A DNA stretch of 64,000 nt, taken from positions 32,001-96,000 of IMG/VR virus record IMGVR_UViG_3300045988_059940. The stretch is one strand, 5' to 3'. Position numbers and translations under genes: made by a program. The stretch comes from a virus. Shown here in pieces: positions 54 to 28,144 of the stretch (the first letter of the stretch is position 1; each line of letters opens with the position of its first letter). The notes beneath the pieces were generated by a model. It saw only the letters and a list, made by a program, of their open reading frames with translations, did no database searches and had not been told where the DNA came from.

Positions 54-722
54 TTATTTCTAATTTGTTTCTACTACTCTTACATCTGATGTTTTAAGTA
101 GTTCGTTTGTATTTATAATATCATACTTATAAACAGTTACTTTTTTAAAGTCTAATGTAAATAACCGTTTAAAGAATGACTTTTTATTCTTATATTGTTT
201 CTTTTTATAGATATACAAATATTGAGTATTATTTACTTTCAATCTTATATTTACTGTATCTTTACCTATTGTATATTCTACTGTTGTAAGGTCGTTATAG
301 TTTATAGTATCTTTATATACACTATCTTTAATAATAGTTTTTACTATATCCTACCCCCTTACCCCCTTAGACTTATTAACGTATATTTCCTATGTCTAAG
401 TTGCAGCAGTATTTATGTGACTAGGTTTTATCTTATTTTTTCTGGCTACACTATCTAGTTTGTGTAATAGCGAATCGTTCTAGTCCTTCAATCTTGTCAT
501 ATCTAATTTTAGAACATTGTTAGCCTACTAGGAGCCATTAATTATCCCCTAGTAAGCCTCAATGTTGTTTTGAGCCATTTCTAGCCCTTCTGAGAGCTTT
601 TTATTCTATTTGTATAGAAATATACTACTAGCGACAGATAATGCCACCAGCGCAATTAAAATGGCCTTAGAGATGATTTTACGATTTCGCTTTATCCAGC
701 TTATTATCGTTAGAATCTCCAT
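54..722 (-). CDS. membrane-anchored coiled-coil protein, spanin/Rz-like candidate (222 codons, 9 in-frame TAG)
   Basis: ATG at 722-720 and TAA at 56-54. Walking frame 0 gives no TAA/TGA. TAG occurs at 60, 351, 390, 396, 480, 525, 528, 549 and 606. The N-terminal hydrophobic segment ILIALVALSVASSIFLY is followed by a charged helix-like region. It overlaps the holin-like gene, as lysis genes often do. Confidence 0.55.
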
Positions 723-945
723 GTGCACTTAAAAGACTTTTTATTTCTCCAAATTTAGTATTAATATATGTAGTAATACCAAATACGCTGCCTGCATACA
801 CCAGTGTCTACGACACATACCACAATACTTCGCTTGGTATCTTGTGTTCATTTAAGAAGAACGACAAGAACGTAAGCGCTATACCACTAAATAATGATAC
901 AGACGCTGTGCTATACTGTACCACTTCTTTACTATGTCTTGTCAT
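679..945 (-). CDS. small two-TM protein, holin candidate (1 in-frame TAG at 808-810)
   Basis: The full translation was checked: MTRHSKEVVQYSTASVSLFSGIALTFLSFFLNEHKIPSEVLWYVS-TAG-TLVYAGSVFGITTYINTKFGEIKSLL...KS, ending in TAA. It has two hydrophobic stretches and a charged C-terminus. It lies directly downstream of the putative lysin. Confidence 0.5.
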
Positions 946-946
946 A

Positions 947-1372
947 TCATTCTATTGTTAATGTTACGTTACCTTCTTTACAAGCTTTTTCTATAATTGG
1001 ATATAGCTTGTCTACGGTAGCACGAGAGTTTAATACTTTACCAACTGCTTTATTTTCACCTACTAAAATACAACCGTGACTTTGCTCTGCTGAGTTGCCA
1101 GCATGTATCAATACACCAGAAAATGAATTTACGTTCAACAACCTAGGTGTAAATCTCTTAAATCTAGGTGAGAAGCTCCAAGTTACTTCATATGTACCGT
1201 ATGGTATAGCAGTTTCTCCATATATCTTTTGCTCTCCATTATCAAATACGCCATTCTTATTTAAGTCACGAACAGCATCTTCTAGTGTATCACAAAAGTA
1301 TACTCCATCTATATATAGCTTACCGATAGTATATTTATCGCGTAAAGCCGTTCTTTTAATCGTTATTTTCAT
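947..1372 (-). CDS. DUF5675-like putative cell-wall hydrolase (endolysin candidate)
   Basis: 141 aa with no TAG. The pattern G.LYIDG..C.TLED...IP.GTY.V..S.SPRF....P.L..V..F.G.LIH.GN....S.GCILVG matches my recollection of the DUF5675 family. The stop is TGA at 947. Confidence 0.55.
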   Translation of the reverse strand: MKITIKRTALRDKYTIGKLYIDGVYFCDTLEDAVRDLNKNGVFDNGEQKIYGETAIPYGTYEVTWSFSPRFKRFTPRLLNVNSFSGVLIHAGNSAEQSHGCILVGENKAVGKVLNSRATVDKLYPIIEKACKEGNVTLTIE

Positions 1373-2502
1373 ACGCTTGCCTCTATAACTATATCTTTTG
1401 TAATATTAGGTATTGTAAACCAAACATATTGGTTGTTCATTCCACCCCAATGTAGAGTCAACCTTGATGTTATATCTACGCCTTCTTCATATACATTAAG
1501 ATTAAACCGTTCTTCTGAACCAGATTCTACTGGACGAACAGTAAATTCTCCCGATGTACCATATTTAACAGAAGAAGGGCCGTCCATCTCAAACTTATCT
1601 TTCGTATTCAGTATTATATTACGCCTACGTTTCAGTTGTACGGTGTTTGTGATGTCCACCAGGTTTACTTGTATTATAACACGAAATGTGGTATCCTAAC
1701 TTGTGTCATTTATTCTAATACACATATTTGTTTCATCGTATTCTACACCAAGCGTGTCTACTGATATTTTTATTCCATCTTGTCCGTTGTATAATTTTAC
1801 AGAACCATCTGAGTAATGTAGTTTGATTACAAACTTTTTACCAGATAAATCTTTATCTCCAAATTGAATTACATCTGTCATGTCAAACATGAAATCACCT
1901 AATTCTACTTGTTCTAATATTGGCTCTTCTTTATCTAAATCAATATTACCATCTACATAAGAAGGACCTTCTATAAGCTCTAATGCTTCATTCTTACGTA
2001 TAGTATATGTACGTAGATTATCTTCTCCCCATCCTCGCTGATACAATGTAACCATAATGATTAAATCAAATACACCAGTAAACCTTTGGTCTTCTGCTGG
2101 AAAATAACATTCAGCCATATTCTTTTCTGGAAGAAGTCTTGACGCACAGAGATAATCTGTATGTGTGTTTACAAATCTTTTAGAATATACACCAAAGCCA
2201 TTGTATGATGGGAACATGTGATAATCTGATACTTTGCCAAACATTGCGTTGCTTGAAAAGTAAGGATTATAGTATGTAAATATCTGATTGCCATAGATAT
2301 TCGGACTCATAGTATATTCTGTTGGATGATAAAACTGAGGAAAATTACAGTTATGAACTTTTTCTGTAAAGTCTTTATCTTCGTGTTTGATAAGATAACA
2401 CCTCATCTACTTAACAGACGTTACATCAAACTTATTTAATTCCCCAAGTTTAAATCTAAAACGTACATCTGTACCTTTTGTTATTATTCTATCTTCACTC
2501 AT
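1369..2502 (-). CDS. virion-module hypothetical protein (377 aa, in-frame TAG at 1696 and 2407)
   Basis: ORFs 1369-1659 and 1696-2406 and an upstream ATG at 2502 are all in one frame. Only TAG interrupts them. The gene ends in TGA, overlapping the next ATG as ATGA. Confidence 0.6.
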
Positions 2503-2510
2503 AATATTTT

Positions 2511-2555
2511 ATTTAAAACAAAAATAGCTGGAACGGGAATTAACCCATCCCAGCT
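2511..2555 (-). terminator. rho-independent terminator after the 344-aa structural gene
   Basis: On the minus strand: AGCTGGGATGGG-TTAATT-CCCGTTCCAGCT followed by ATTTTTGTTTT. Confidence 0.7.
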
Positions 2556-2565
2556 ATAAGGGAAA

Positions 2566-3600
2566 TTAAACAAGCTTATTTAATTCAGTCTCAACTAAAC
2601 CAAGTTGACCCTTCAAACCATAAATTTCAAGACACTGGCTCGTCTTACGAACGATGTCGTCAGCAGCACGATAGCTGTTTTCAAACTCTAACGTAAGAGA
2701 ATCGTACTTAGCGCCTTTCTGTACCTCCATGTCAGGACGTATAATAGGCCAAGTACCTTCACCACGGTTTAGGATACCCTCATAACCTTGTGCCCAATAT
2801 TCACGGTCACGTACGTGCTTCCAGTTACATTCACCGTCATGACCTTCTGTCTTCTTAATTACAACACCGTCGATGAAGTATTTGTTCTTTGAAGCAAAAC
2901 CAGATGCTGATGGGTCTGTAAAGTATACATTAGCAACAAAGCGAACCTTGTTTGCAGGACTGATTGACATTACGTTGTCGTCATCATCATAAGGAAGCGC
3001 TTCAATCTTCAATGTCGTTTTGTCAGTAGCTCCATCAACAATAGCAGAAGCAATTACACGTGCACGCTTGTATTGTTTGTTGATAAGATTAGCAAGCTTC
3101 TCTGGCAAGTTCTTTTCATTATCACCATCTTTGGTTACATACTCATAAGACTCAGTCCATTTGCGGAAACGATGAGGCATGTCCTTAAACGTCAAGCGTA
3201 CTATAATACGCTTACCAGCCATACCAAGCTTCGTCTTCATTTGCGTAGACATATTCTTGAATTTAATTTCAACAGTATCTTCTGTTTCGTCTTTATATTC
3301 CTTTTTATGTAAACCGCGAACGTCAGCTTTCTTAATCTCGTTAGACCACTTGATAACTGGTTCATAAGTCGTAGCACCAGTGCTATAATCAACCTTTGGT
3401 TGACGCTTATTTTGAATAAGACCAACCTTTACTACATTACCAGTAATTGTTGCACCGACAGTGCCGTCTTCACAGTTCATGAAGATAAACTTACCTGCGT
3501 CAGCAACAGCAGTGTTTGTAGCAGTATCAGCAGGTTTTGCAGCAGCAATAGCGCCAGTGGCGAGATTGCTAATCATTACATTATTTACGTATGTATTCAT
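2566..3600 (-). CDS. abundant-looking structural protein (344 aa, no TAG)
   Basis: An uninterrupted ORF with a TAA stop and its own strong terminator. It lies in the head/tail-adaptor part of the late module. Its function is not recognisable by eye. Confidence 0.6.
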   Translation of the reverse strand: MNTYVNNVMISNLATGAIAAAKPADTATNTAVADAGKFIFMNCEDGTVGATITGNVVKVGLIQNKRQPKVDYSTGATTYEPVIKWSNEIKKADVRGLHKKEYKDETEDTVEIKFKNMSTQMKTKLGMAGKRIIVRLTFKDMPHRFRKWTESYEYVTKDGDNEKNLPEKLANLINKQYKRARVIASAIVDGATDKTTLKIEALPYDDDDNVMSISPANKVRFVANVYFTDPSASGFASKNKYFIDGVVIKKTEGHDGECNWKHVRDREYWAQGYEGILNRGEGTWPIIRPDMEVQKGAKYDSLTLEFENSYRAADDIVRKTSQCLEIYGLKGQLGLVETELNKLV

Positions 3601-3671
3601 ATTTATTAATTTTTTCTACTCACCCTAATTTCAAAGGCTCAACCTAATGAGCTGGGCTTTCCACGTTAAAA

Positions 3672-4373
3672 TTATTCTTGTGTCATAACTTCCTACGATA
3701 GAGTCTTATACCGCTCATCTTTGGTATTTTCTAAATACATTTGAGCTGCCATTTTGATAATCTCATACATAGTATTGTTATCAAAATCATAATATTCGTC
3801 ATCCATTCTTAGGAAATTTATTTCTTCTGGCTTTTTTAAGTATCCCAGAATATACTTTTTAATTTTATATTTCTTATCTGTTAACAAATAACAACCATTG
3901 TCAGTTCTCACACGTAACGGTCTAGCATAGCCGTACGAATAATGAAAATCTGTTAAGCTGTTATCTACACGATACATAAAGCTGTCTGATGTACATTCAA
4001 ATACACTAACTTGTCTTGGGTTTGAATTTTGCATATCACATATATCCACATCTTCATTTAGTGCATATAGGAAATCACCATTATACCTAACAGAATATTC
4101 ATTATATTGTGGATTAGATGTATTAATTGATGGTGAACCTATTGTAAAGTCCACCTCTTGTGTACGACATAGCTTTATTAAATCGTTTCTACGCTTCTCA
4201 TTTTGTTCATATGATGTTTTGTGTGTAAAATCACCATTGAAGCGTATCTTAATAAACTTATTTACTGCCTAGTTTAACCAATACTATGAATCATCTGTTT
4301 TTGGTTTATTGGCGTAATCGTCAAGCTTATTTATTTCTAATTCAAATGCTTCAAGTATTTCTAGGTTCTTCAT
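3672..4373 (-). CDS. virion-module hypothetical protein (TAG at 3693, 4269, 4284)
   Basis: ATG at 4373 and TAA at 3672. Frame 0 was walked across 4155-4373 and 3672-3692 and contains TAG only. Confidence 0.55.
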
Positions 4374-5070
4374 CAGTATTAGTATTATTTTGTTTATTCT
4401 ATTCTTTTCTTCCAAGTCCAGATAATTTGAATTTGTAGTCTGCTATATACATCTCTACTGCTCCATTTACTATTTCATCAGAACATTGAGATGGTAATAT
4501 ACACGGTGTGTTATCTACGTCAAACCTTGGAGGTTTTGCGTAATATTCAACCGTAAATGAACCAATTTGACAGTATTGGTCATAGACTATATAACACTTA
4601 TTATCTTCACCAAAAGCGACAAGTGGATTTCTAATTATACGACCTTTGTCGCCCTACCCTGGTATATACTTATATAAATCTCTGAAAAATACATGTATAC
4701 ACCTAGCTGTATTAAATGGAAGAACGCGCTTTTTATAATCTCTACTCATTTGGCAATAACTATCTATATATAGGTAGAAATCATTTATTGAGTCTGTATT
4801 TGATATATAAGCGCCATTTTGATATAATTGTGGAGTTATAGACTTCCTAAGCGTTTGAATAACACTAGCAATCTTAACTCCTTGTGGGGTTTGAGAATCT
4901 ATTTTTTCTTGTAATACAAACATAGATTGTATATACTTATTCTAAAACTCATTTAAGAATGAATATATAGTATCTGTATCTAATTTGCTTGCTATTTGAA
5001 AATCAGGCCATATTTCAATTAGGCGGCGCTCAAACTCAATCCCCAAATTTCGTGTTTCTTGTTGTGTCAT
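4351..5070 (-). CDS. virion-module hypothetical protein (TAG at 4399, 4654, 4942)
   Basis: ATG at 5070 overlaps the upstream TGA as ATGA. Frame 1 was walked down to the TGA at 4351-4353 and contains TAG only. Confidence 0.55.
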
Positions 5071-5771
5071 GCCTCTAATTGTTTAGTTTGTAATATACTG
5101 GTTAATCGCGGAGATTCTGTATTTTCTGTTGCGAATACAACAGCTAGATTTATCAATTCATTTGCCATTGTGTCAGATAGTTCAAATTGAGTATTATCGA
5201 ACCTAAATGTATCAATATCATTTCCTACAATTCCACGAGTAAACTGATTTGGTTTCTTTATATATTGATAATATAATCTACTACCAGCTGGTACACCAAA
5301 GTCTTCTGCATACTTATAATCAATAAATACATGAAATTGTGTATCCATATAACCCACTGGTTCTTTTAACCAAGGCTTATTTATACTAGTCTACATTGAC
5401 TTTTGAGCAGCAGCATGTGAAACCAATTGTATGTTTTGCATTTCATCTATACCAAAATATGAACTTATATAATATAACATATCGTTTGGTAAATCTGCTA
5501 TAAGTTCGTTTTTAATTGGTAATACAGTTTTCCTACCTAATGTAGTAGTCCACTCTTTAATCAGCGGCCTTAAATCTTCTATAACCTTTATATCACCTTC
5601 AAATGCTACCTTCCTTGTGTTGTTTCCTGTAAATTTTTGAGCTATTAGAGCTAGGTACGCTTTGTCGAGTAATACAGCGGCTTCATATTCTGTTAACGAC
5701 GGATATGACGAAGTAACATCTGCCTTGTCATATTCTATCATAAACTTAGTATAAATATCACTATGTGTCAT
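5067..5771 (-). CDS. virion-module hypothetical protein (TAG at 5391)
   Basis: ORFs 5391-5771 and 5067-5357 share a frame. The gap contains only the TAG. The stop is TGA. Confidence 0.6.
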
Positions 5772-5786
5772 ACGTCGTATATATTA

Positions 5787-6539
5787 TTATTTATTCTTAG
5801 TTTCGTTTATAATCGAAAGTCTAAGGTCTTGATTCTTCTTATTGTCAAGATAAGCAATTGCTTCTGGAAGTGAGTCTGCAATCATGTCAGTGCCATAGAA
5901 ATATGATGTACGTTCTTTACGAATAACACCTTTTGCCACAGCTTCTTCTAAGATAAACTCAGTTTCCTTTGATTTGTTATTAATCCATTTTTCGAAGAAC
6001 TTCTTTGGTTGTTTATCAATAAGCTGGAATAAAGAAGATTCTACAAGCTCATTTGACATTTGTTCAGAGTTAACGCCAAATAGGCGCAAGCACTGACGCA
6101 TTTGGTCTAATGACAACTTGTCAAATTCTTTAATAGCATCTCTACGTAACTTATTAGCTTTATTTAGTTCGATAGCCTCAGCTTCACGGTTAATGAGCAA
6201 ATAATCCTTGCCTGCATCCATCTTATCTAATGTAGTAGCTACACGTTTGTGACCAGATAAGAACTTTACAATCATTTCTTGACGAGGAACGCTTGTATCC
6301 AAAAGAAGTGTTCTTGCGCCAATTTTTACGCAGAACGTAGTCCAAAAGCTACTTGTCTTAGCAAGGTGACCTTCTGGATAACCTAGTGCTTTCTCATAAT
6401 ATTTTTCATCTTCGGGAGTAAGACCCGTATAAATTGACCCAGACCTTGTGAAGTATGGAGCAATATAATCATAACATGAGCGGTATTTAATTAAACCAGC
6501 CCACGGATTTTTCTTTTTAATTTTTAATTCAACTACCAT
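5787..6539 (-). CDS. hypothetical protein downstream of the major capsid candidate (no TAG)
   Basis: The likely start is MVVELKIKKKNPW at 6539, after the hairpin at 6570-6610. The stop is TAA at 5787. Confidence 0.55.
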   Translation of the reverse strand: MVVELKIKKKNPWAGLIKYRSCYDYIAPYFTRSGSIYTGLTPEDEKYYEKALGYPEGHLAKTSSFWTTFCVKIGARTLLLDTSVPRQEMIVKFLSGHKRVATTLDKMDAGKDYLLINREAEAIELNKANKLRRDAIKEFDKLSLDQMRQCLRLFGVNSEQMSNELVESSLFQLIDKQPKKFFEKWINNKSKETEFILEEAVAKGVIRKERTSYFYGTDMIADSLPEAIAYLDNKKNQDLRLSIINETKNK

Positions 6540-6569
6540 AATATATTTAATCAGTGTTGTACCTATATA

Positions 6570-6610
6570 ATGTAAAGAAGTTCGGGGAAGAATTATCAAC
6601 CCCGAAGTTC
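6570..6610 (-). terminator. hairpin/attenuator after the major capsid candidate
   Basis: On the minus strand: GAACTTCGGGG-12 nt-CCCCGAACTTC followed by TTTACA. The T-run is weak. Confidence 0.45.
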
Positions 6611-6648
6611 ATATTACATTAATACGTTTATATAAGTATTATTGTTTA

Positions 6649-8172: not shown

Positions 8173-8194
8173 ATATTGTTATAAATTATATTAA

Positions 8195-9313
8195 TTAGTA
8201 CATACCTGTCAACAGGTCTGTAACTGATTTTTCTTTACTTGTTGCACTCTGCGAAGTGTGATTTTTAGCAGAGTTTCTTAAAAGTTTTCTAAGTTTCTCA
8301 GCAGCAGACGTTTCGCCAGTCTTTTTTGCTGTTGAAACTACGGCATCACCTTTCATAGTAAAGTAAGCAGATTCGATTAGGTTCTTTGCTAGATTAGAAT
8401 CAAAGTCCTTCTGGTATTGTGTATAACCATCTTTATCTGTCTTGAAAATATAATCATACAAAGCTTTGCGGTCTGCTTTTGGGATAGCAATGCCACGAAT
8501 TGAATCTAAACTATTAATACTATCTGTTACAGATTTCATAAATTGCTGTTGTTGAGCCTCTTGTTGTCTAGCCAACTCTGCCTGTTGCTTAGCATTTGCT
8601 TCTGCTTCATTCTTACGAATTTCTTTAAGCATCTCCAAAGCGTCTTCCGACTCTTCGTATAATACGCCAGCATCTTCATATCTAGCAATCTTGTTATTAA
8701 TCTGTTCATCTGTGTAGCCGTTGTGACGAAGCAAATCACCAATTACAGTACGTTGATTGGATTCTGATTCCAAATCAATGTTATCAAGAGTAAGTGCTTG
8801 TTTTTGTACTTGATAGAAATCTTCAAACTTACCACCATTCTTTACAAACTCATCTAACTTCTATATCCTATCATCTGCATACTGTGGAACTGAGTTCTAC
8901 TGTACAACATCTGTAAGGTACTTAGTTAGACCATCTACTGTAAGTGGTCTTTCTTCATCACTAATGTCTGCTATATTCCAACCTAATGATTCAGCAACAG
9001 CATCGAACAAAACACCAACTTGTTGTGCCTCAGCAACATCTTCATCAGTTGGTTCATTTTCATCGACGTCTTGTGTATCTTCTTTATCATCAGATTGTTC
9101 TTTGTCAGCAGGCTCTGTGTCTGCTGCTTGATTTATATCATTATCTTCCTCATCAGGTTCATCGCCTTCTGGTTCTTTAATTTCTGTTACTTCGTCCTCA
9201 ACCACAATATCTTCATCCAAGTTAGTAGCACTAGTATCTCCTTCTGAATTACCGTACATGCTTAACAGGTCATCAAATGTGGATGGATTAGTTTCTTGTT
9301 TACGTTTTGCCAT
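8195..9313 (-). CDS. scaffolding-protein-like (acidic N-terminus, Q/E/A-rich coiled coil; TAG at 8861 and 8897)
   Basis: ORFs 8897-9313 and 8195-8773 share a frame. The gap was walked and contains TAG only. The composition includes DEDIVVEDEVTEIKEPEGDEPDEEDND and AELARQQEAQQQQ. The gene lies directly upstream of the capsid candidate. Confidence 0.5.
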
Positions 9314-9362
9314 AATTATTAATTAATAATTAAATTATTTGTTTCGCTGTTTAATCAGCGTA

Positions 9363-9998
9363 TTACCATTCAGTATAATCATAAGGTCGCCTTAGAGTTG
9401 TAGGGACACCTTTTTTGGTTTTACCATACAACTAATCACGCATACCTTTCAATACTTTTTTCATATCTGGAACACCTTTTGTTTTGGCGTTCTTTGGATT
9501 TAGCTTCCATTTACTCATTGCAGCATCTATGCTCTTCATGTTAGCCATACGATTACTATATGTGTCATATGAAGATTCATAGTATCCTGCGTCTTTTAGT
9601 ATTCTGGCTGCTTTTCTTGGGTCTGTTTCGTCTAGTACATTATTGTACTTTTTATCCATTAAGAGATTGTCGCTAATGTAATAGTTAGCAAAGTCTTGTT
9701 CGTTTTTAAATTGTTTGTATTGATTAATATTTGGACTAACAATACCTCCATAATTGTGTAGATTTCTAGCAATAGGAGATGTACCATTTAATGACTCCAA
9801 TGCAGTTTGACGCATAGCATTATCTAGCCAATCTAGTTTTCCGACTTCTTGCAATCTGTCATATAATGCTGGTGCCATCTTTTCAACATATTCATCGTAC
9901 TAGTCTTTGCCTCCTGCATAATTACGAATATCCCAATAGTTTTCACCATTCTTCCAACGGTCAAATCTTTCTTGAAAAGACTTAGTATTATATCTCAT
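9363..9998 (-). CDS. head-module hypothetical protein (TAG at 9432 and 9900)
   Basis: ATG at 9998 abuts the portal TGA at 10001-10003. Frame 0 was walked down to the TAA at 9363. Confidence 0.55.
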
Positions 9999-10000
9999 AA

Positions 10001-12484: not shown

Positions 12485-12488
12485 ATCG

Positions 12489-14785: not shown

Positions 14786-14787
14786 AA

Positions 14788-15306: not shown

Positions 15307-15317
15307 ATTTAATTATA

Positions 15318-16547
15318 TTATGCTACTACTGTACCATTGGCGTCAACCCATTTGTTATCTTTACCAAACCAGAGCGGTTTATTCTTTACTGTATCAAAGA
15401 ACATTTGACCAAGTACTGGATTTGCTGGTCTAGTTGCAGCAGGAGTTTGTGGCAATACATCTTGTACTTTCCTACCATCAGCCAAATACATATCTCCGTT
15501 CACCCTAATATCTAATGCATTACTTCTTACTGTATCAGACTATCCATTACCTATTGTAAATAACGAAGACTATTTAGCTTGATTTGCATCTTTTACAATA
15601 GTACTATAAGAACCATCCCCAACTGTATTTGAAAACGCGCCGAATACAGCTGCATAATCTACATTAGATTTATTATTATTTCCAGTTATAAACTAAGCGT
15701 TTTTGTAAGACTTATTCTTTGCACCAGATATAAAAGACCCATTGGCGTTTGCGCCTATGTAGTTAGAAAATCCAAATGTTGCTGAATATTTTGTTTTTTC
15801 TGCAATATTCTATGTACCAACCGCAATACTATTTGTATAGTTTCCACGATTCTCACCAGCAAGTATTGAACATTTACCATCATTGCTAGTTGTAAACATA
15901 GAAATAATGCCAGGTTTTGTTAATCCGCATTCTATTGCATTTGTGATTATGACCTTATTGTCGGAATTAACATCAAATATTACTTTCTTTAATGTAGATT
16001 TTGAAAATTTTTCACCTTCTAGTTTTAATCCGTTGGCGTATTTTCCAACAATCATATATACATCGTAAGACTTTAAATATGTATATGACGAACTTGTACT
16101 ATCATACGCAGTGACCGCGATGTCACCATTTACAGACTTTATTTTAAATATATATGCATTTGCTATTATTAAATTCTGTTCACCTTTATTTAGAATGCCG
16201 AATCCGCAAAGTATAGATGTATTGCCCAAAGATGCAATATTATATCCAGAAATAATATCCGATGGACCAGAATATACATTGTGGTTTGACTTTATTGTAG
16301 TTAGTGTTATTGCTGTATTATTTATATTTTCTGTCTTATTGTCTGCGGAATAAGATGGCGATATAACACTATCTACTAATGAATTAGATGTTCCACCAAC
16401 AATATTTAAAGATTTTACTTCATTTGCATCCAATATTGTACCTGGTTCAAAACCATTTTTTATATCACCCAAAACTATCTATGGTGTAACGGCATACTTT
16501 AATCCTCCACCCTAAATAGTTGTACCATTTAATTTTACTGTTTCCAT
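15318..16547 (-). CDS. tail fibre protein (409 aa, 6 in-frame TAG)
   Basis: ATG at 16547 and TAA at 15318. Frame 0 was walked, with TAG at 16512, 16479, 15810, 15693, 15570 and 15540. The composition is Gly/Asn/Ser-rich and beta-like. The C-terminus GQMFFDTVKNKPLWFGKDNKWVDANG resembles fibre tip repeats. Confidence 0.55.
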
Positions 16548-19500
16548 TAATTATAATAGTTTTTAGTTGTATTATTATCTAATAGAGTTTTTGGATTTTC
16601 ATGTATAGCATTTGCACCATAGTTCATAAATACTTCTCCATACTCTAATTTATTATGTCCAGCTGAAACATATCTATTTGGTGTAAATACCTATGCAAAC
16701 TTAACCTTTCCTGGACTTACAAATAGTGTACTACCACAGAAAGCACCTCTTATATAAGATAATTGATTAAATCCGTAGAATACGCCACTTATCTATACTG
16801 GTTGAGATGAGTTGCCCGTAACATAATGACAATATGCAAATGCAAACCCTATGTCTCCTAATACAGACTTATTTATATCCTATATAGCAGAAAGATTAGT
16901 TCCTAGATACAATGTTATACCATTAAATGTATTTCTAAGAGTTGTTATATTAGGACAGTATTTAAACAAGCTCTTTGGTATTGTGTAATTTGTAGTACCG
17001 TCTAATAAAGTATATGTAGACAAATATGTACAATTATAAAACATTCCAGTTATATTTTTTGTATAACCATTAAATGGTAACAATAATACTGGTGGAATAC
17101 GTCCGAATAATCCGCCTCTATCTTGAACATTATAACCACATCCACAACCGTAAAATATATTCTATATCTCAGCATCACCATTACAATATCTAAATAAATC
17201 TGGTGCGCAACAATAGTTTAGTGTACCACTTAATATAGTATTATCTCTTGTGATTACAGAAGATACTAAGTTCTCATCGTGTTCATCATCTCCATCATGT
17301 ACCCCAGTCTTCTTATGTACACCATCATAACTCCACATTATTGTGTTGTTTACAGTATCAGGTTGAGCTTTCTAGAATTTACCATTTATAAATAATATGT
17401 TGTATGGTTGATATGTATGGTTTTGAATTTCCTCTGGACTGTTATTAACATAAGGTTGTATATAATTGTACTAAAATAGATTATTAGTAAAGTTTATCTT
17501 TGAGTTTGGTTTCTTTGTAGTAATTGTAGTTTTAAAATATACAACACCTTCTGGGTTCTATATTACCGTACCATCTTTACTCCACTCTATTGTTTCGCCT
17601 GTCTATTTATATTTAAATATATCACCGTTCTTATGTGTTATTGTCACAGTTGTTGTTGAAACACCATTTGATGTAGATGTTTCTGATTCAATTTTACCAT
17701 CAACTATTCCATAATATGTCTATGTAACATCCGTTTCACCGTGATATAATAACTTATACGGTATATGACTTTTTATCCGCTCTTGATATGAAGAATTTGC
17801 AAACAAATAAGATACCTAATTTAATGAAGTACAATTTGCAAACGAGTTCCCAGTAAGCTTATAATCAAACTTTAAATCTGAGAACAAACCATATACATCG
17901 GTTAACTATGGATTGTTTATAAATAAATTACCAGGTAACTCTGGAATAGATATTAGATTTTCTGCTGTTGAATTACTGAACAAATATCGTACAACACTTA
18001 ACTTTTTACAATCTTTAAATATATTTTCTGGAAAACCTCCAACAATACGCTTTTTATAGCCATATCCAAACATTGTTATATTGTTGATAGTGCTTCTATT
18101 ATTAAAATGCGTAAGGTTGGTAAAACCTTCAAATAACTGATTTGTAATTGGGAAATCAACAGATGTTGTACCTTTGCTTAAGCATGCAAATGCAGATATA
18201 ACTGATACATGTTGTGGATGCTTGAACATATTCTTAAAAGATATGGTTCCTTTTCCATAACTTGAAATAAAAGCATCAGATACAGAATTTACTGGATTTT
18301 CAAAAGTTATTGTATCATAATCTATAAAACATGCGTTAAAGCAACTAGTATAATTCTTTGTTAATAAATTCTTGGTAAACATTGTAAGATTTCCTCTATC
18401 AGCACCGCCAGTTTTTGATAATTCTAAATCTCCATTGGCGTATTTATTATCAAAGTCTACAAATCCTGCATTGTTTACATCTTCAACGATGATTGAATTT
18501 TTATGATTAAAAAATCCAGTAAATGAATTTATTTTATAATTCTTAGATGAATGTCTAAACATAAATCTATCGAACATGCCGTGGAATCCATTTGCCCAAC
18601 AATCTATATTTGTCAAACTATCTATAAGTGGACTAAACAGACCGTTGTCTTTCGTAACATTGTTTTCATCGTGTTCTGGTGAGAATATTCTAATGTTTTT
18701 ATAACATCCCCATAGAATATCACGAATATCCCAAACGCCAGTTGCGAAATGATACATATAACGATTTGGACTATTATCCACAGTAGCTGTACGTTCAAAG
18801 TTTACCTTTGACTAAAAGAACATACCACGTAAACTCTTCATCTGTCCTAAGTTTGATAATGCGTAGTATACATCAAATACTGTACATGCGGTTTCTCTAA
18901 ACATATAATCACACACAGCAGTTCCAAATGTTATATTAGTTACACCATCACCACTTTGCCACGGCATCTTCCAATTCAATGGAGGCTGTTTACCTTTACT
19001 ATCTGGATTAGTTATTTCGTATGGCATAAGAACTCTACCGTCTGTGTCTACAACAGATTTGTTCATAAATTTAACAGTAGATACATCTGAACCATGTAGT
19101 GAGAATTTATTCAGCAGATAAAACGTTCTTGTTGATGCAATTACTATATTACCATATAAACGCTTTAAATTGGCACAGCCTTGGAATTGCTAAGTTAAAG
19201 TAATAGGTTTATCTTTATCATTAGCAAACTGTATGTATTCTACTGTACTATTTTGGCTAATATTGAATGTTTGTAAACCTGTAAACTTACTAAGATTTAA
19301 TATATCTTTGCTAGATGGACTTCCTTTTATTGCACTACCGTTCAAGTATAAGTTTTCAACGTTAGCTTCATTACAGTTGTCGATAGTAACATAATTCAAC
19401 TTAGAATTTGAAGATAAATCTATACTGGTAAGTGCTCGCAAATCAGATAGTGTAACATAATTTGTATTAGAATCACCAATCAATGCTTGGTTGTTTATTA

Positions 19501-21037
19501 TTCTTACACTATCTAACCTAGGACAGTTTTCAATAGCAATTTGTGTTAAGTTTACATTATTTGCTATTGTTAAATTAGTAAGATTTTTACAGTTTATAAT
19601 CTATACCTTTTGTAAGTTATTATAACCAGACAAGTCCAAAGATGTATAACCATCGCAATCTTCTATATAAACCGTCTATAAATTGTTACATCCTGTCAAG
19701 TCAATCTGTTTTAGATATGGTTGATGTCTCAAATCCAACTCATTTATGTTAGACCTTTGTATCTATAATGTTTTCAAAGGTACGTTGGTCGGTATGTATA
19801 TGTTTGTAATACATTTACTACCAGATATATTTATATCAGTAAGTTTAGTAAACTTTGTAAATGCGTGTGGAGTTTTGCTGTTTTGTTCTATATCTAAAAC
19901 AAATGTTTTCGTGGGGTCTAAGCACTGTGTATTAGAAAAGTCCATAGTTCTAATCTAAGACTGTATGTCTTTTCTAAATACATCTAATTTAAAGTCTGGG
20001 CTAAAATGTTTGTTGCCACTCAAATCTATTTCATATAATGCTGGGAATCCTAATGCATCTATTGTATTTTGTGCTTCTGTTGCAGCTAATATAGATACCT
20101 ACATACTTGATAACTTATTGTTAGCATTACCAAGCTTTATGAAGTTATTTGAATTAGTAATGTTCCAGTTATATGGACCACCATATTTAATGTTGCCAAC
20201 GTTTACAAACGTTTCTTTATTGTCCTATAAGAAATAGAAAGCGGTAACTGTATCGCCAATACTTATCTTTGATATTATTGGACAGTTTGTTGTTACTGGG
20301 AATACCTGTTGATTTGTACCCATTATACTGTTACCAGTAGATACATCTGCATTTGATTTAAATGTAATAGATTGCTGTTGCTTTGCAGTATCGCGCCACT
20401 TAAATAAGCTATCTAAGAATATAGTATGCTTCTTCAACCAATTTCTACTATGTGCAATCTTACGACCATGTAGCTTAGTCATATCTTTTGTATTACTAAT
20501 TTGGTCGTTAGTAAATTGTAATAGATATTTTAGCTTATAGTCATAATTAAATATCAACGAACCACAATCTGATGTTTGCTTATCAAAGTATTCATCAATG
20601 AAATAATTCGTAAATGTATCATATCCTTTTGACTTAGCTAAATCTTCTGTAAACTTTCTAAAATCATACCAATATTTTGTATATAGTGAATTTACATCTT
20701 CTCCAAATACTGCCCTACTAAACGATGTGTCTAATGACAACCACAGTTTGTTTGTATTTGCAGACACTGTTTTTCTAGATATAGCTTCGTCGAAATTAAA
20801 TGTTTCTGATACATACTACAATCCATTTTGTGCATTTGCAACAGTACCCTTGTTTGTTAGATACTTAATCCACACATCTGGTGTAATAGACAACTAACCT
20901 TGGTTATCACCGCTCATAGAACAGTCTAGGTCATAAAAGTCAGTAAGGTATTTGTTTCCATCCCAAGACCTATATGTTGAGTTCTTTCCAAAGTTATCAA
21001 CTAATCCAAAGAAGTTTGCAATGATGAAGTATTTCAT
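16535..21037 (-). CDS. very large tail/receptor-binding protein with leucine-rich-repeat (BspA-like) regions (1500 aa, 21 in-frame TAG)
   Basis: Seven track ORFs are all in frame 2. Every gap was walked codon by codon and contains TAG only. For example, 17084-17905 has 8 TAG and no TAA/TGA across 274 codons. ATG at 21037 and TAA at 16535. LRR-like periodicity is visible in 18.0-19.7 kb (..NLT.I.I.NC..L..V.., SIDLSSNSKLNYVTIDNC). Confidence 0.65.
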
Positions 21038-21115
21038 TGCACTTTCTACATTGAATCCTAGGTTCTCAGCACTTACTGCATTGGAATCAATTTCAATATC
21101 TTGTTTCTAACCAGT

Positions 21116-24100
21116 CTTATAATAGTTATTAAAGTTATCAACTGAGTATAAATCATAAGACCCTGCAATATAGTTTTTAGAAATCGTACCAATAGAGTCA
21201 CTACTATAACAGCGTTCTATTGGGAAGCGCATTATGTTCTTTACGAACTGTACAAATCCTGGGTAATCGCTAACCTATTTATTTGATGGGTATCTAACAT
21301 CAAACCTACGATTTAAGATTTCTCTATCACTTTGCCAGAAATCACCATTTGAAGTATTTATACCTTCTGGAAGTGTATCTTTTACATTTGCAAAATCACT
21401 TAGAGATACAGTATCTTTAATTTCTATCCAGTTTGCATTTTGTGTATCTTCCTCTACGTATTTTACTTTATCTTTATAGAATGGGAATGTAGTTACCTCA
21501 AATACATTATTACCTTCATCTACGATTTTATTTACTTTCTTAAATCCTAAGTTTCTATATGCGTTACGACCTAGGTTAAATGAATATATTCCAAGTGGCG
21601 TAGTAGATACTTTATTTTGCGCATCTGTGTAGAATTTCATTATTAAGAATACAGGGAAACCTTCTACTGTATGTTTAAGTGTAGCTGTCTTTTGCTGCTT
21701 CTTAACATAATCAGACTCATATACATTGTCTACTGCTTTTTTATCGAATGGGAAATATTCAGATGTACCAATTCTACCAAGTGCACTATTTATAAACGAA
21801 CCAATAGAAGCATTACTAGCATGAGAGCTGTCTACAACGTCAGCTTTAAGTGTATATGTCTGTTCAGGAAACCATGTAGATTTTGGTACAAATGCTGTTG
21901 TGTCAGGTACAGTTATGTTTACGTTCTTAACTGCGTCTGCTAGCGTTGAAGTACCTTGTAATTCAATTGTGACACCGTTAATTGTTTTAATACTAGTGTC
22001 AATACCTGTCTTATCTTGTTTGTTTATTCCAACTGGGTCCCAGTATTGTATAACTTTATTTGTAGTAGCAGTTAGAGTTGTAGATGATGCTGATTGCTGT
22101 TTTACAAACTAATCAAATGTCCAAGATGAGTCGTTACTAACATCAATCAATACAATAGGTATGCCAATAAATGCAGCCTATTCTTGTATGCTTTTACTAT
22201 TTAATCTACCATTAGAATCTAGTAAGAAGTCTACATTATAGCCAGTATGCTCGTTGTATAGGTATGATTTAATACTACCATCAGATTTTCTTTCACAGAA
22301 GTTCTTTTTTAATTCTACCTATATTCTTGCATAGTTTGGAGTTCCATTTACATAATCAGTTGACACAATATTATTTATACTATCAACCATTATGTCGAAC
22401 TCATTAAGTGCATATGTATATATATTCATGTTATATATATCTACATCACACTTATTATATATTACAGACTTTCCATTCTTAATATATTGTCTAGCTCCTA
22501 AATATATAGTATCACCAAATACAATTGGAGTTGTTAGATTTCTAATAGCTGACAATACTCCGTCCAAATACACCTTGACTACATATGATACACTATCCAC
22601 ATATCCAGTTGCTATTTGTGTACGTGTCGTCTACTTCTTACACGTAATTGTAATATCATTTTCAGTACTATCTTCAAGCTATATTACATTTTCATTATTA
22701 ATATAAATGTTATGTACATCAATGGATATACCATTAATCATAGCTCCAAGATTCTAGTCTGCAACAGAAGTATTACCAGAGAATAATATTGTTCTCTCAT
22801 CATCTGGGTGATAGTCTGCTTTATAATGTATATGAATTGTAAATTCGTCACCGCTTGACGATATGATGTCATTAAACTTATATTTTCTAGATTCTAGTGA
22901 AATGTCATCAAATTTGGCATATGCACCATTACTAATCCTATAATACTATACAGCAGAATCTAAAATAGATACTCTTGACCTAATATTACTTTCCATTGTT
23001 CGCAACACAGAACCTATTTGGAATTGTGATTTATAGTTTGTATTTGTAAATTCAAACGTATCATCACCAACGTTCTATGCTCTGGCATGCAATGAGAATA
23101 TTCTGTTGTTTATAATATTAGATGTGTCTGATAAATATGTAACTGATGATTTTATAAACTTAATGTAATATGTCGTAGTTGCTGTCTTCTGTCCAGAAGT
23201 AACGGTCACCTTCAACGGTACTGTCTTATTTGCAACAGTCCACGGTTTATTATTTACAGATATATAATCACTAACCTACCTACCAAATACACCGTCAGCG
23301 TCTTGTCTAACAAGATTTCCATCTATTTCTATATTATACTTATAAGACGTGTACTGACTTACATATGCTGTAAATACAACATTAACAGAACCATCCATAC
23401 TAACCTCTGTTGGCTGTCCTTGTACTTTGCTCATTACAGCAGACGATATTAGAATTTCTGATGACACCACTGTCATTGTAGATTTAATCGTCTTCTTTAC
23501 AGATTGTGTTGTTTTGTTCTGTAAAGTACATTCTACAACATAACTATCTATGTAATCTTCTGTCTATCCTATCAAGTCACTAAGTACAATAGATTTTAAG
23601 AACTAGTCGGTTGTAGCAATTACTAAGTCATACTCTTTTGTAATTGTATGTAATCTACCTATGAGCTTAATTGTCAACTTGTAGTTACCGACAACACCTA
23701 CACTATAATACAACTTTAAAAAAGAAGTATTTAAGCTAGTTAGTGTACTTTGTATATCTTCACATGACATTTCTATGTTGTTGTCAATAATAACACCAGA
23801 CCACTGTGCAGAGCCGTATATACCCTTTTCGTCATCTTCATAAGATGCAGATATATTCAGCTTTCCAGTATGATTTGATAATTGACTTACAACAGTATCA
23901 TATGGTACAAACAGTATAGGATTTGACGCATTAGCTACTGAACTATATATCTATGTACTACCTATACGAGCTATTACATTCCACCCTTTATTGTATTTTA
24001 CACTTAAATCTGACAGCTTTATCTGTAAACCTCCCTAGTCCATTATTATTTGTGAACCAGTTGGTTTATCATTTACAGTAATAGTTGTATTTACTTCTGT

Positions 24101-24346
24101 ATCACCAGGTGTTGCTCCTCCACCTCCACTACCAGAGCCTCCACCTCCATGTAGTGCGAGCCATGATATATTTCCTTGTGCGACAGTTAAATCATCTTTT
24201 AATCTTTCCATCGCAGTATCAACAGAGATTATATTCTCTCCGTCTTTTAAGAACTTAGGGTTTGTTGTACCGATACCTTTTGCATCATTACTTGCTACAA
24301 TATCCCAAGTTCTTTTTGATTCATTATATTTCTTTATGTTATTCAT
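21116..24346 (-). CDS. large tail fibre/spike protein (1076 aa, 14 in-frame TAG)
   Basis: ATG at 24346. Frame 2 was walked across all gaps down to the TAA at 21116-21118. The N-terminus is MNNIKKYNESKRTWD... followed by a GGGGSGSGGGG linker. Confidence 0.6.
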
Positions 24347-24357
24347 TGTAAGAAAGA

Positions 24358-27300
24358 TTATAAGGTGATTGTATATTTGTCCTATGTGGTTATATTATAT
24401 GCAGATAAATCTTGCGGTAATGATTCTTTCAATGTCATTGCTACTGCTGATAGACTATCTAATTGTTTATTCATGTCATACTTTGCAGTATTCTTATCTT
24501 CATTCACCGTCCAAACACCTTTTATTTGTTTAGCTGTAATATCTATTTTACTATCTGACATTTCATACACTACATACATGGGGTAATGTTGCTTAACATT
24601 TTCCTTCGGTGTAACTTCACTAGTCTTAGCTTTAAAATATGCTAACAACCAAGGTATTTGATAATCTGGCCCAGACGGCTGTTCTTTGTTTGAAACTAAC
24701 TTCCAACCAGTTGCCTATGACATAACATATGTTGGTGCATTGATTTTATCTACTATTTCAAATCTTGCAAATTGTAACCAATCATTATTTATATCTGATG
24801 CCTTTGTTACCTAAATTACTGGTTTTCTAGAAACACCTTCTGTTACTTCGCCCATAAACTCAACGGCTGTATTTTGCCTGTTATTCTATATATAATCAGC
24901 TGGTGCATCATATATTGGTTTACTTATACTATAAGTATGTTTGTGACCACCAAATACTAATCGTATACCATACTTCTTAAACAATCTAGAAAACCTATAT
25001 GTACCATTGTTATTTAGTGTATTTAAGTGTGAACCACTACGTCCTTTTACACCATTCATGAAGTCCCAGGTTACGATTGTAAATGGCATTTCATGCATAT
25101 AACAAAGTGTATTTTTACAGTCAGTTGGATTCTCTACACCATAGTATATCTATAAATCTTTCTTTAACCAATCTTCAATTTTAGCGTTCATTGTTTTAGC
25201 AAAGGTAGCATCGCCAGAGTTTGTACTAATGTTCCAATCATCTGTATACACTTTACTAGTAGCTACCGCATTTTCTGAATTAATAGATATGAAATGGAAT
25301 TTCCCATAATTAAACGAATATGTAGAATACATTAAACATTTCTTCCCATTCCATGTTAATTCATATTCATTGTTTGGGTCTAGCTCAAATGTAAAGTATT
25401 TCAATACATTTACATGGTTATATTTAGATGTAACATCATCACCGTCTGTTAGTTGTGTAGCATTATGTCCACACAAGTCATTGTTACCAACAGTAAACAT
25501 TTCAGTTTTATCACCTAAGAACTCGTCTAGTGCTTGATAGTAATCTAACCATTCATTCTCCCTATTACCGTTCTAAGTAATATCTCCTGTATTTATCAAG
25601 AAGTCTGCGTCTTGTTGGTCTTGTGCTAACATCTTGGCCGATTTACGCCAAGCCTGGTAATCTATCCAACTGAACCCTTGTTGGTCAGTTTCTTGTACGA
25701 ATTTAAAAGTTGTTACCTCTGAGTTGTCTTTGACCGTTAACGTCTTAATTGTACTATAATATGACTCGTCAAAGTCTCTTCCTATGCGATATTCATATAC
25801 GCCAGCTTCAAACTATTCACTTAATACTACCTTATGAGTAGTAACCATTGTACCGCGTACCGTCTTCCAGCGTAATCTTTCATAATGGTCTATGAACTTA
25901 TTTATAACAGCTGAGTTAGAAGAATCATCTCTTGTTATAGAATATTGTTTCTTCCATTCAGTTTGTCCTTTTTTACGATATTCTATAAACTCATCGTAAT
26001 ATCCGACAGATACCCAATTGAAGCATCTAGAAGCCTTTTTGTGATTTGCTGTATCGGAAGTGGCTTGAATACCAAATGTACACCTTATGCAGTTTGGTTT
26101 ATTCTTATTGAACTCTGTTTTATCTGTAAAGAAGTTTTTACCCTCCCATGATGCTTTTGGTGTATATTTCTCTTTCATCTCATCTAGATAGTAATACTGT
26201 ATACTATTACCTATCTTTGTAGTTTGACGTTTAAGATTTACATATATCCATAAGCTTGTAGACTTTCTAGCACCATATGCTTTATTACCCTATTTGGCTG
26301 GTTCTAACATAAACCTACGTATAAATAGCGCATCATTCCAAGAATCTCCTGGCTCTAATAAGAATGTAGTTCCACCTTCACTTAACGAGCCTACACCAAA
26401 TCCACAGCTATCTATATATCCTTTATTTACCTTTTGTTTATTCCAAGGTGAAGCTAACTCTCCAACAGCATATAGATTACCATTGGAATCGTACACCCAG
26501 TTATCTGTTGGACTACCAACACACAAATAGAAGCTAGAACAAGTTTGGCTAAACTTTATTAGTTCACCATTTGAGAACCACTCTTGGTCATATGTATTAA
26601 CATCAATGAATTGAGAGTTATAATCATTACATTTAGCTCCTCGTATTAAATATGTAGAGCCTGCTTTTATTACACCACTTAGCGGTAATGTGTGCCACTT
26701 GTATCCGTTTGTACCTCCACCATATGGTGTACCATCTGTATAGAGTAGATATATACCATTTAAGTTAATATCTTCTGTTGAACCATTTGCAAGCTCTACA
26801 AAGTTGTGTGAACACATACAGTCTTCTGAACCTTGTCCACCGCAATATACTTCATTTATACAGAGTAGATGATTTATAAATACACCCCAAGACCCATCTG
26901 GGTTACCTATACCAGTTGGAGTTTGTATATTCTTATGTATCATAAACTCGCCAGACTTACTTACTTCTACTTTGTATGTAGATTCACCGTCTGTAAAGTT
27001 TAGATACCTTAGTTTCGTAGCATATAAATCTTCTACACTAATTCCACCACCAGAACCTCCTGAGCCACCATCTGTTGTGCCTACAAGATTGAACTTCCCA
27101 TCTTTATATAGAACTAAACGTTTTTTATCTGTATAGAATAGTATTTCACCGTCTATTAGGTTTTGTCTATTCTTATTGAAATTAGCTACTGTATCCATCT
27201 TTATAGATACATGATTTACAGTAGGTTCTATTCCTTCTGTATTAGGTTTATCTTTAACTATACCTGGAATATCTTTTGATTCCTTTGGTTTAAGAGGGTC

Positions 27301-28029
27301 TGCTGAACGCATGATAATTTCCCTAGCACTAGAATGTGCATCACCAGCTACTACACCGTTGAGTATTATTTTATTTACAACACTCATGTTTTTGTATATT
27401 TCAGCGAGTGCTGCTTTTATCTTCTTTAACTCATCAGCATCATTCTATGTTAGATTTGTAGTATCACGAGTGTCTATCCACAACTTGCTTTTATCCTCTG
27501 GTGCAATTTGTCCAACATATATCTACGAACTTGATATTTCTGATAAACCTGTTGATAACAGACGATATAATACGCCTGTTGTTTTATTATATATTATTTT
27601 TGTAGATGCTTCTTTGTAATCATCAGATGACCCATAATTATCAGTGGATGCCCACTGTGCATATGCAAAACCTGCCTTTATTGCTAGGAATTTTTTATGT
27701 GCGTCACTGTATACTATTTTATCGTAAGTATTTGCTACGTTTACATCATCGATAGTATATATTGTCGTATCTATTGAATCTATTGTTAATACGTCAGACT
27801 TACGACCATTCTGCTTTATTTTTTTTAATATTTCATCAATGTTTATATCTGGCTATTGTGCCTATAAACGCTCTACAATACGTTTAATGGAGTTGGCATC
27901 AAATATATCCCCATCTTCAAACTAATGGTTATTGATATATTCGCCACGCTATAACATGATTACTTTTGGAGTCCTAGGTATATCTATGTTATCAATAATC
28001 CTAGTACCAAATAGTTTTGTTTTTTTCAT
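24358..28029 (-). CDS. large multidomain tail-associated protein with a lamin-tail-like domain and a metallophosphoesterase domain (1223 aa, 14 in-frame TAG)
   Basis: ATG at 28029 and TAA at 24358. Frame 1 was walked across all gaps. A GGSGGSGGG linker is present. HNFVELANGSTEDINLNGIYLLY is LTD-like. The phosphoesterase motifs are GDIT-TAG-NG, GNNDL and FGGHKHTYS. Confidence 0.6.
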
Positions 28030-28144
28030 GTGCTATAATTAAAAGATTATACAAACAAGGAAAGGGGACCCCTTATCGGGACCCCCTTTTACCTGCGAGA
28101 TATTGCCAGTCTATGTACGCCATCTCAGGTAAGCTTGTTACGCG

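Follow-up and report, generated by a model that had tools for sequence, protein, structure and literature searches.

Suppressor tRNAs and stop-codon reassignment, mostly in late genes, have been described in crAss-like phages, including those of the Delta group (PMC7886860). For two crAss-like phages, metaproteomic data have confirmed that TAG is read as glutamine (Gln) (Peters et al. 2022, PMC9523058), and both a bias of recoding toward lysis genes and a hypothesis of recoding as a timing device have been published (10.1101/2021.08.26.457843). Three genomes, cr131_1, cr130_1 and cr272_1, are already annotated in GenBank with TAG-containing coding sequences (CDSs) and a tRNA-Gln suppressor. 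Here, we consider a 64,000-nucleotide stretch of the IMG/VR virus record IMGVR_UViG_3300045988_059940 (positions 32,001 to 96,000 of that record; hereafter "the window"), which makes up about two thirds of a genome of ~98 kb and has a G+C content of 34.8%. We find that in the packaging, virion, tail, and lysis genes of its leftward (minus-strand) module, TAG is very probably a sense codon for Gln, decoded by a phage-encoded tRNA with the anticodon CUA, which we write as tRNA(CUA). The novelty of the recoding itself is low: because it has been published for this phage group, what we report is a phenomenon already described, correctly recognised in one further genome, and the original prediction for this DNA had rightly placed it in a class that is already known (PMC7886860, PMC9523058).

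By protein homology, the window is predicted to come from a crAss-like phage (Crassvirales, Suoliviridae/Oafivirinae, near Bohxovirus) of the gut/oral group. Its closest GenBank records by megablast and tblastn are Bohxovirus sp. 'endotrachealis' (PV686213.1), cr131_1, cr130_1, cr272_1, and cr273_1, with ~76% nucleotide identity in the portal region. At the protein level, the portal is 75-80% identical to those of Oafivirinae members, and TerL and the major capsid protein (MCP) are 79-85% and 78-82% identical, respectively, to those of relatives, with a syntenic gene order; it is the combination of portal, TerL, and capsid homology with gene order that places the predicted phage among the Delta crAss-like phages (Suoliviridae). 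Closer relatives are found in IMG/VR, where two contigs (L011 and L013) show 98.8% protein identity over ~3,200 codons and a third (L009) shows 84%.

Compared with cr131_1 (NC_055902), cr130_1 (NC_055901), and cr272_1 (NC_055903) (PMC7886860), the window has the same gene order, portal, TerL, and capsid proteins that are 75-85% identical, TAG in the same late genes and in some cases at identical codons, a tRNA(CUA) upstream of the dUTPase gene, and mobile inserts in TerL; unlike those genomes, it carries giant tail proteins at 15318-28029 that have no counterpart there. With the code-15 phages (10.1101/2021.08.26.457843; PMC9523058) it shares the reading of TAG as Gln, recoded structural and lysis genes alongside TAG-free replication genes, a suppressor located in a standard-code stretch just upstream, and a membrane protein of the lysis cassette that is the most recoded of all. 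It departs from them in that no release factor or aminoacyl-tRNA synthetase is seen in the window and that a gene of nucleotide metabolism, ThyX, needs read-through.

TAG is the sole stop codon that interrupts the leftward genes

Open reading frames (ORFs) were re-called mechanically on the minus strand with only TAA and TGA as stops. The resulting ORFs tile positions 54-28029 without gaps as 20 contiguous genes comprising 9,369 codons (a set that takes in TerL exon 2, the small ORF at 679-945, and the TAG-free dUTPase gene at 28145-28705). Every gene terminates in TAA or TGA, and neither stop occurs internally in any of the 9,369 codons; in the remaining two frames of this DNA, TAA and TGA together number 455 and 940, from which we would expect ~700 by chance. 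In-frame TAG, on the other hand, occurs 98 times, or 96 times if the gene at 3672-4466 starts at its second methionine (Met32), a start that is favoured by alignments to relatives. The original prediction had named TAG as the only interrupting stop and put the total at roughly 90-100, and both statements stand; a recount found no overlooked TAA or TGA inside the joined genes.

The effect on gene calling is large. When ORFs of 100 codons or more are counted, 48% of the minus strand is coding in the standard code and 97% with TAG as a sense codon, whereas treating TGA or TAA in this way brings the figure to only 50% or 55%, respectively. The earlier warning that a standard-code annotation of this DNA would be badly wrong is well founded: under the standard code, the 20 genes come out as more than 100 fragments, and coding density is ~48%. 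Any pipeline that annotates this DNA has to set TAG=Gln in the leftward module. Two GenBank records of relatives, PV686213.1 (L003; 168 features) and PP511876.1 (L006; 222 features), carry a standard-code annotation in which the late genes are broken into tiny 'hypothetical protein' CDSs.

In-frame TAG accounts for 1.05% of codons in the leftward genes, compared with none in 27 rightward genes (5,131 codons), and for about one quarter of Gln-type codons on the leftward side (95 TAG versus 290 CAA+CAG in 17 ORFs). Its use is nevertheless uneven from gene to gene (Table 1). It is densest in the lysis-cassette gene at 54-722, where 9 of the 12 Gln-type codons (75%) are TAG; the gene for the MCP and three other late-module genes have none, nor does the dUTPase gene in the upstream unit; and outside of 54-722, the portal gene, TerL, and the three genes that span 15318-28029, each leftward gene contains between 0 and 5. 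For 54-722, the portal gene, TerL, 15318-16547, and 24358-28029, the counts made by hand in the original prediction agree with ours. Where that reading needs amendment is in the longest gene, which it had divided in two at 16535-21037 and 21116-24346: the supposed boundary is an in-frame GGT TAG AAA, and in a tblastn comparison to Bohxovirus, a single high-scoring segment pair spans residues 1-2586 of the joined 2,599-amino-acid protein. The 21 and 14 TAGs counted in the two halves hold, and with the missed boundary TAG itself, the total becomes 36. Within this gene, the segment at 17084-17905 is free of internal TAA and TGA as had been claimed, and contains 7 TAGs instead of 8.

Alignments through TAG positions favour glutamine

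If TAG is read through in these genes, proteins of relatives should align straight across the TAG positions, and this is what we observe for TerL, the portal protein, and the 2,599-amino-acid protein alike, in agreement with the original prediction. TerL aligns at 79-85% identity to the unbroken 685-amino-acid TerL of cr130_1/cr272_1 across all seven of its TAGs, each of which faces Q, R, or a TAG common to both. For the portal protein, the alignment to gp20 of crAss001, a portal of solved structure (PDB 7QOG), likewise continues across the TAGs, and a query made of residues 1-675 of the protein is at least 80% covered at a single place in 128 phage records, among them cultured, standard-code Flavobacterium phages. 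More distant comparisons point the same way: cr10_1, cr1_1, and Azobacteroides phage ProJPt-Bp1 have no in-frame TAG in TerL, portal, or giant protein, and their genes are full-length; as predicted, the TerL and portal genes of these relatives are not conserved as fragment-sized genes.

To assign an amino acid, every TAG in the window was mapped to the aligned codon in eight GenBank relatives. At 34 positions both genomes have TAG. At the further 215 positions, where TAG faces a residue, that residue is Q (CAA/CAG) 76 times, N 21, E 18, S 17, L 7, and Y 2 times. We scored the facing residues against the substitution profile of each amino acid obtained from the same alignments; Gln reached a log-likelihood of -522, and the runner-up, Glu, -697. 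When the three standard-code relatives were used alone, Gln again came out on top (-157.5 versus -177.3). The reverse mapping gives a similar picture, with TAGs of the relatives facing Gln in the window 94 times and the next residue, Lys, 20 times. At the shortest evolutionary distance, in comparison with the contigs L011 and L013 (98.8% identical, and with the same tRNA), 35 TAGs are shared, and all eight differences (8/8) exchange TAG with CAA or CAG, four in each direction. Glutamine is thus the predicted meaning of TAG: in both reference sets, which are independent of each other, it leads the other amino acids by a wide margin in likelihood. The TAG in ThyX (see below), which lines up with a Q in a signature motif, agrees with this assignment.

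A long-armed tRNA(CUA) as the probable decoder

ARAGORN detects a tRNA with the anticodon CUA on the minus strand at 28731-28819, adjoining a tRNA-Met; the 'Pyl' label that the program attaches merely reflects the CUA anticodon. A tRNA(CUA) is present at the same locus, upstream of the dUTPase gene at the head of the leftward genes, in cr131_1, cr130_1, cr272_1, and 24 IMG/VR relatives, and is labelled tRNA-Gln in the GenBank entries of the relatives. Most of these copies are ordinary tRNAs of 72-76 nt; they have U1, their 1:72 pair is weak or mismatched, and their D-arm resembles that of phage tRNA-Gln(UUG). The tRNA of the window shares acceptor, D-arm, anticodon loop, and T-arm sequences with them. 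It differs from the ordinary 73-74-nt suppressors of cr131_1, cr130_1, and cr272_1 in being 89 nt long and in having C1:G72, U73, and an extra arm of 5 bp, which is part of a variable region of 21 nt (canonical type-I tRNA-Gln has a short variable loop of 4-5 nt). The gene encodes no CCA. A phage tRNA-Gln(UUG) in the relative L040 likewise has C1:G72, and its D-arm is shared with the suppressor of the window.

The 89-nt form is found in seven IMG/VR contigs (L010-L013, L036, L038, and L053). Across its four sequence variants, 26 of 26 stem pairs are kept, with changes on both sides of two pairs and on one side of three, pairs of the extra arm (two) included. Because all stem pairs stay paired across the variants, we take the gene to be under selection as a folded tRNA. 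Since exchanges between TAG and Gln codons continue within the lineage that carries the 89-nt form, we infer that this tRNA would insert Gln at TAG.

A classical parallel is supE of E. coli, an amber-suppressing tRNA-Gln(CUA) by which Gln is inserted at UAG: like it, the tRNA of the window combines a Gln-type body with a CUA anticodon, and in the relatives it is chiefly the anticodon that sets the suppressor apart from phage tRNA-Gln(UUG). However, supE belongs to the type-I tRNAs, its variable loop being short and its end pair U1:A72, and it suppresses weakly in a cell where UAG is still a stop, whereas the tRNA of the window has a long extra arm and serves ~100 obligatory sense codons. An identity as tRNA-Sec or tRNA-Pyl was also considered and rejected: the tRNA falls below the Rfam tRNA threshold and obtains its best score with tRNA-Sec, at 42.9 bits against a gathering cut-off of 47, and it has an acceptor stem of 7 bp and a T stem of 5 bp, not the 8/5 or 9/4 arrangement.

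The unusual shape of this tRNA bears directly on what TAG might mean, as one could suppose that TAG is indeed a sense codon but is read as Ser, Leu, or Tyr through a class-II-like suppressor, its long extra arm recalling tRNA-Ser, tRNA-Leu, and bacterial tRNA-Tyr, with the Gln signal being a remnant of the ancestral code. In favour of this, the tRNA measures 89 nt with a 5-bp extra arm, it is not accepted by the generic Rfam tRNA model and has its top score with tRNA-Sec, and seryl-tRNA synthetase is known to read the extra arm, not the anticodon. The codons tell a different story: at the 215 positions that face a residue, Ser, Leu, and Tyr together are seen far less often (17, 7, and 2 times) than Gln (76 times), and the eight of eight changes to or from CAA/CAG at 98.8% identity took place within the long-arm lineage itself. 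In addition, homology links the tRNA body to the Gln-type suppressors of relatives and to phage tRNA-Gln(UUG), and the discriminator position is occupied by U73, where G73 would be typical for Ser and A73 for Leu and Tyr. A class-II tRNA for Ser, Leu, or Tyr was therefore rejected on the codon-substitution evidence, the extra arm being present while the discriminator and the codon meaning disagree, and we regard this explanation as very improbable.

Slightly less probable still is that the host supplies the altered code, either through a suppressor of its own or by itself using TAG as a sense codon, such that the phage tRNA(CUA) would be dispensable. Recoding and detectable phage suppressors do agree imperfectly, and host-encoded suppressors have been raised on that account (Yutin et al., PMC7886860). 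Against this, a tRNA(CUA) lies at the same place, intact or split, in every relative examined, and the stems of the tRNA evolve under a pairing constraint; some rightward genes apparently terminate at TAG, as would be expected in a standard-code host, and the prediction for most recoded phages is that their hosts use the standard code (10.1101/2021.08.26.457843). Finally, the notion that the TAGs are real stops, and the late module a set of pseudogenes, fragmented genes, or sequencing and assembly errors, accounts for the many short ORFs that standard-code callers produce (and with which PV686213.1 and PP511876.1 were deposited), but is effectively refuted already, given that TAG is the sole interrupter with no TAA or TGA in 9,369 codons, that frames are kept across every TAG, that 34 TAGs recur in relatives and most of the others face Gln codons, that essential genes (TerL and portal) are affected, and that the pattern repeats in dozens of independent assemblies.

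Gene layout and proposed timing

Having argued that TAG is read as Gln by means of the phage tRNA(CUA), we now turn to how the decoder and its target genes are arranged. Along the minus strand, two small TAG-free genes (30920-30118) are followed by tRNA-Met, tRNA(CUA), dUTPase, a hairpin, and then the first TAG-rich gene, which begins at 28029. The hairpin (28089-28061) has a 12-bp G+C-rich stem followed by a T-rich tail. A hairpin and T-tract occupy the same spot in relatives with quite different stem sequences, and because the structure is kept despite those differences, we consider it a conserved terminator-like element. The tRNA-Met (28976-29049, minus strand) lies directly upstream of the suppressor tRNA always in the IMG/VR relatives and Bohxovirus.

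Under such an arrangement, the suppressor tRNA would accumulate from a TAG-free, standard-code unit, and the late genes would be translated at full length only once the suppressor is present. The published model places a 'code change' unit, itself in the standard code, ahead of the late and lysis genes that are recoded (10.1101/2021.08.26.457843; PMC7886860); the layout of the window matches this timing model and adds one independent example of what the recoding-as-timer model predicts. The heavy use of TAG in the lysis protein at 54-722, as well as the absence of TAG from the MCP gene and other late genes, fits the same model. Three of the four TAG-free late genes may encode abundant virion proteins that avoid an inefficiently decoded codon.

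In the rightward module, a sigma-70 family factor with regions 2 and 4 is encoded at 48051-48608 (plus strand) and could join the switch to later transcription. A Pfam search of 20 further ORFs outside the late genes revealed a DnaB-like helicase, an AAA_24 ATPase, the sigma-70 family factor, a metallophosphatase, and DUF7399, and no release factor or aminoacyl-tRNA synthetase among those 20 ORFs.

TAG in the rightward module

Sense TAGs are not confined to the leftward module: besides ThyX, two or three small rightward genes carry them (Table 1). One case is the thymidylate synthase ThyX itself, in which TAG falls within the signature motif RHRVFSFLMES-TAG-RY; the site is Q in the nearest relative and in cr130/cr131, T in other relatives, and corresponds to the Q of SQRY in ThyX of M. 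tuberculosis (PDB 3GWC), and the 108 residues downstream of TAG are conserved. At 31585-32055, the TAG is kept in close relatives and replaced by K, N, E, or D in others, with the alignment running on past it. The TAG at codon 10 of 35574-36005 is also present in L009, and here again the alignment continues through TAG.

At the same time, TAG seems to terminate at least two other rightward genes, as judged from alignments. Where the gene at 49092-50501 apparently ends with TAG, the relative L046 has TAA at the same aligned codon; at the apparent end of 45096-45527, TAG overlaps the ATG of the next gene (ATGAATAG), and similarity is lost afterwards. In three more genes (53841-54473, 41406-41867, and 40511-40981), TAG stands 5-15 codons ahead of a TAA. 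The post-TAG extensions of 53841-54473 and 41406-41867 are conserved in close relatives, and in a more distant relative, the counterpart of 53841-54473 stops at a TAA that lies one codon ahead of the TAG.

Because TAG seems to end some rightward genes, we consider this a dual-coded genome of the kind that Mgcod handles (10.1101/2022.06.29.495998), one whose boundary is soft. As in Mgcod-type genomes, an amber-reassigned block (54-28029) lies beside a standard-code block that has TAG at gene ends; unlike in those genomes, the boundary is not sharp, a few sense TAGs being scattered over 31-36 kb of the opposite strand. The original prediction of a code-15-like reading of TAG as Gln is accordingly upheld in its amino acid, which the codon alignments support, and qualified in its extent, as the code is not uniformly code 15 and TAG apparently still ends some rightward genes; likewise, the recoding that it saw in the leftward module is confirmed there and is not restricted to it.

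Several observations weigh against the view that TAG in the late genes is a Gln codon switched on by the phage tRNA(CUA). The sense TAGs of ThyX and of the two other rightward genes are at odds with a strictly 'late only' switch. As a tRNA-Gln, the tRNA is atypical in its extra arm, C1:G72, U73, and score below the Rfam tRNA threshold, and on this account its charging with Gln is no more than predicted. Our promoter and terminator scans yield consensus matches only, and the promoter scan is sigma-70 based, which is not informative for a Bacteroidota host. In addition, since the window holds ~64 of ~98 kb, release factors or synthetases may be encoded elsewhere in the genome.

Annotated features of the window

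The features on which the preceding sections draw are collected in Table 1. In a search of ten late proteins against PHROGs, matches were solely to 'unknown function' families, and the gene names used here therefore rest on annotated relatives.

Table 1. Features of the window, with in-frame TAG codons per gene.
Feature	Coordinates	Strand	In-frame TAG	Remarks
Membrane-anchored lysis-cassette protein, 222 amino acids	54-722	-	9	Homolog of gene beside 'holin' in cr131_1/cr130_1/cr272_1
Small ORF, 88 amino acids	679-945	-	1	Two hydrophobic stretches in translation; holin-like by position beside hydrolase-like gene
Cell-wall hydrolase-like	947-1372	-	0	phrog_1501; relatives annotated 'putative transpeptidase / L,D-carboxypeptidase'
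Six virion/tail-module genes	1369-6539	-		Syntenic with cr130/cr272 structural genes; listed singly below
Virion/tail module	1369-2502	-	2
Virion/tail module	2566-3600	-	0
Virion/tail module	3672-4466	-	5	3 from Met32
Virion/tail module	4351-5070	-	3
Virion/tail module	5067-5771	-	1
Virion/tail module	5787-6539	-	0
MCP, 507 amino acids	6649-8172	-	0	82% identity to 'major head protein' of cr272_1
Gene between capsid and portal	8195-9313	-	2	With the next row, 8195-9998
Gene between capsid and portal	9363-9998	-	2
Portal protein, 827 amino acids	10001-12484	-	7	Aligns through TAGs to crAss001 gp20, PDB 7QOG
TerL exon 2	12489-13127	-	2	Residues 475-685 of intact relatives
TerL intervening sequence, 239 nt, ORF-less	13128-13366	-		Splits TerL exactly between residues 474 and 475
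TerL exon 1	13367-14785	-	5	Residues 1-474; 79-85% identity to cr130/cr272 TerL
Gene	14788-15306	-	3	With the next row, 14788-16547
Gene	15318-16547	-	6
Single virion/tail protein gene, 2,599 codons	16547-24346	-	36	One high-scoring segment pair, residues 1-2586, to Bohxovirus
Late gene, 1,223 codons	24358-28029	-	14	First TAG-rich gene of leftward module
Terminator-like hairpin	28061-28089	-		12-bp stem + T-rich tail
dUTPase	28145-28705	-	0	Annotated dUTPase in relatives
Suppressor tRNA, anticodon CUA, 89 nt	28731-28819	-		ARAGORN
tRNA-Met (CAU)	28976-29049	-		C1/A72 mismatch (initiator-like)
Rightward gene	31585-32055	+		Sense TAG at 31921-31923
ThyX thymidylate synthase	33085-33885	+		Sense TAG at 33556-33558, within signature motif
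Rightward gene	35574-36005	+		TAG at codon 10 (35601-35603)
Rightward gene	45096-45527	+		Apparent end at TAG 45525-45527
Rightward gene	49092-50501	+		Apparent end at TAG 50499-50501

Split suppressor genes in relatives

Another departure from the ordinary form of the suppressor is seen in seven relatives: L009 (about 8923-9990), L003 (PV686213.1; about 1813-2880), L014, L021, L029, L032, and L037. In each of these, an insert of ~1.0 kb divides the tRNA(CUA) gene within the anticodon loop, following CUCU; the insert encodes a 301-amino-acid HNH endonuclease, and its 3' end is A, not G. The exons of the split gene covary like a working tRNA. ARAGORN reported no suppressor in the split-tRNA genomes, and Rfam searches at permissive thresholds gave no intron match for the split tRNA of L009.

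These forms are of interest because Borges et al. (10.1101/2021.08.26.457843) found that a suppressor was detectable in only ~40% of the genomes that recode TAG, and suspected non-canonical tRNAs. A variable arm in suppressors is not mentioned in the phage-recoding literature that we searched. The long-arm and split forms are concrete candidates for such 'missing suppressor' cases, and if both give working suppressors, part of the 'missing suppressor' problem would be explained. We raise as a tentative and rather doubtful possibility that the code switch of this clade relies on kinds of suppressor that are covered neither by standard tools nor by the recoding literature that we searched, namely a long-arm, Gln-type tRNA(CUA) and a split tRNA with an HNH insert; were that the case, splicing or a changed recognition by the synthetase would constitute an added control point for the late-gene switch. 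The odd forms of the suppressor tRNA are the sole part of our analysis that goes beyond published descriptions, and they lend it a modest extra interest.

TerL insert and other RNA elements

The 239-nt sequence that interrupts TerL is probably a small, ORF-less intron; the original prediction had made no mention of this interruption. It is homologous to the 3' end of a same-site insert of ~1.3 kb in cr131_1 and cr7_1, which includes a LAGLIDADG ORF; the window thus differs from cr131_1, where that ORF and the homolog of the 239 nt occur together. Boundaries at 13368-13130 are possible for the insert and would give a U...G junction.

An ORF-less region of 2.2 kb lies at 50983-53223 of the window, where no ORF exceeds 86 amino acids in any frame, even with TAG as a sense codon. 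Its nucleotide identity to a relative is 88-94%, whereas the neighbouring protein of that same relative is only ~73% identical. The region is unannotated in the GenBank relatives, and several compensatory hairpin changes are found within 52340-52650; we consider it a candidate for holding one or more large structured RNAs. Rfam searches at permissive thresholds returned no match for the TerL insert or for this 2.2-kb region, and for want of an Rfam match, neither these two nor the split tRNA of L009 can be called group I introns or known RNAs. A match to a known motif, RAGATH-12 RNA (RF03149, 89 bits, E = 5e-17), does occur at 40423-40504 (plus strand), in an intergenic gap of the rightward module.

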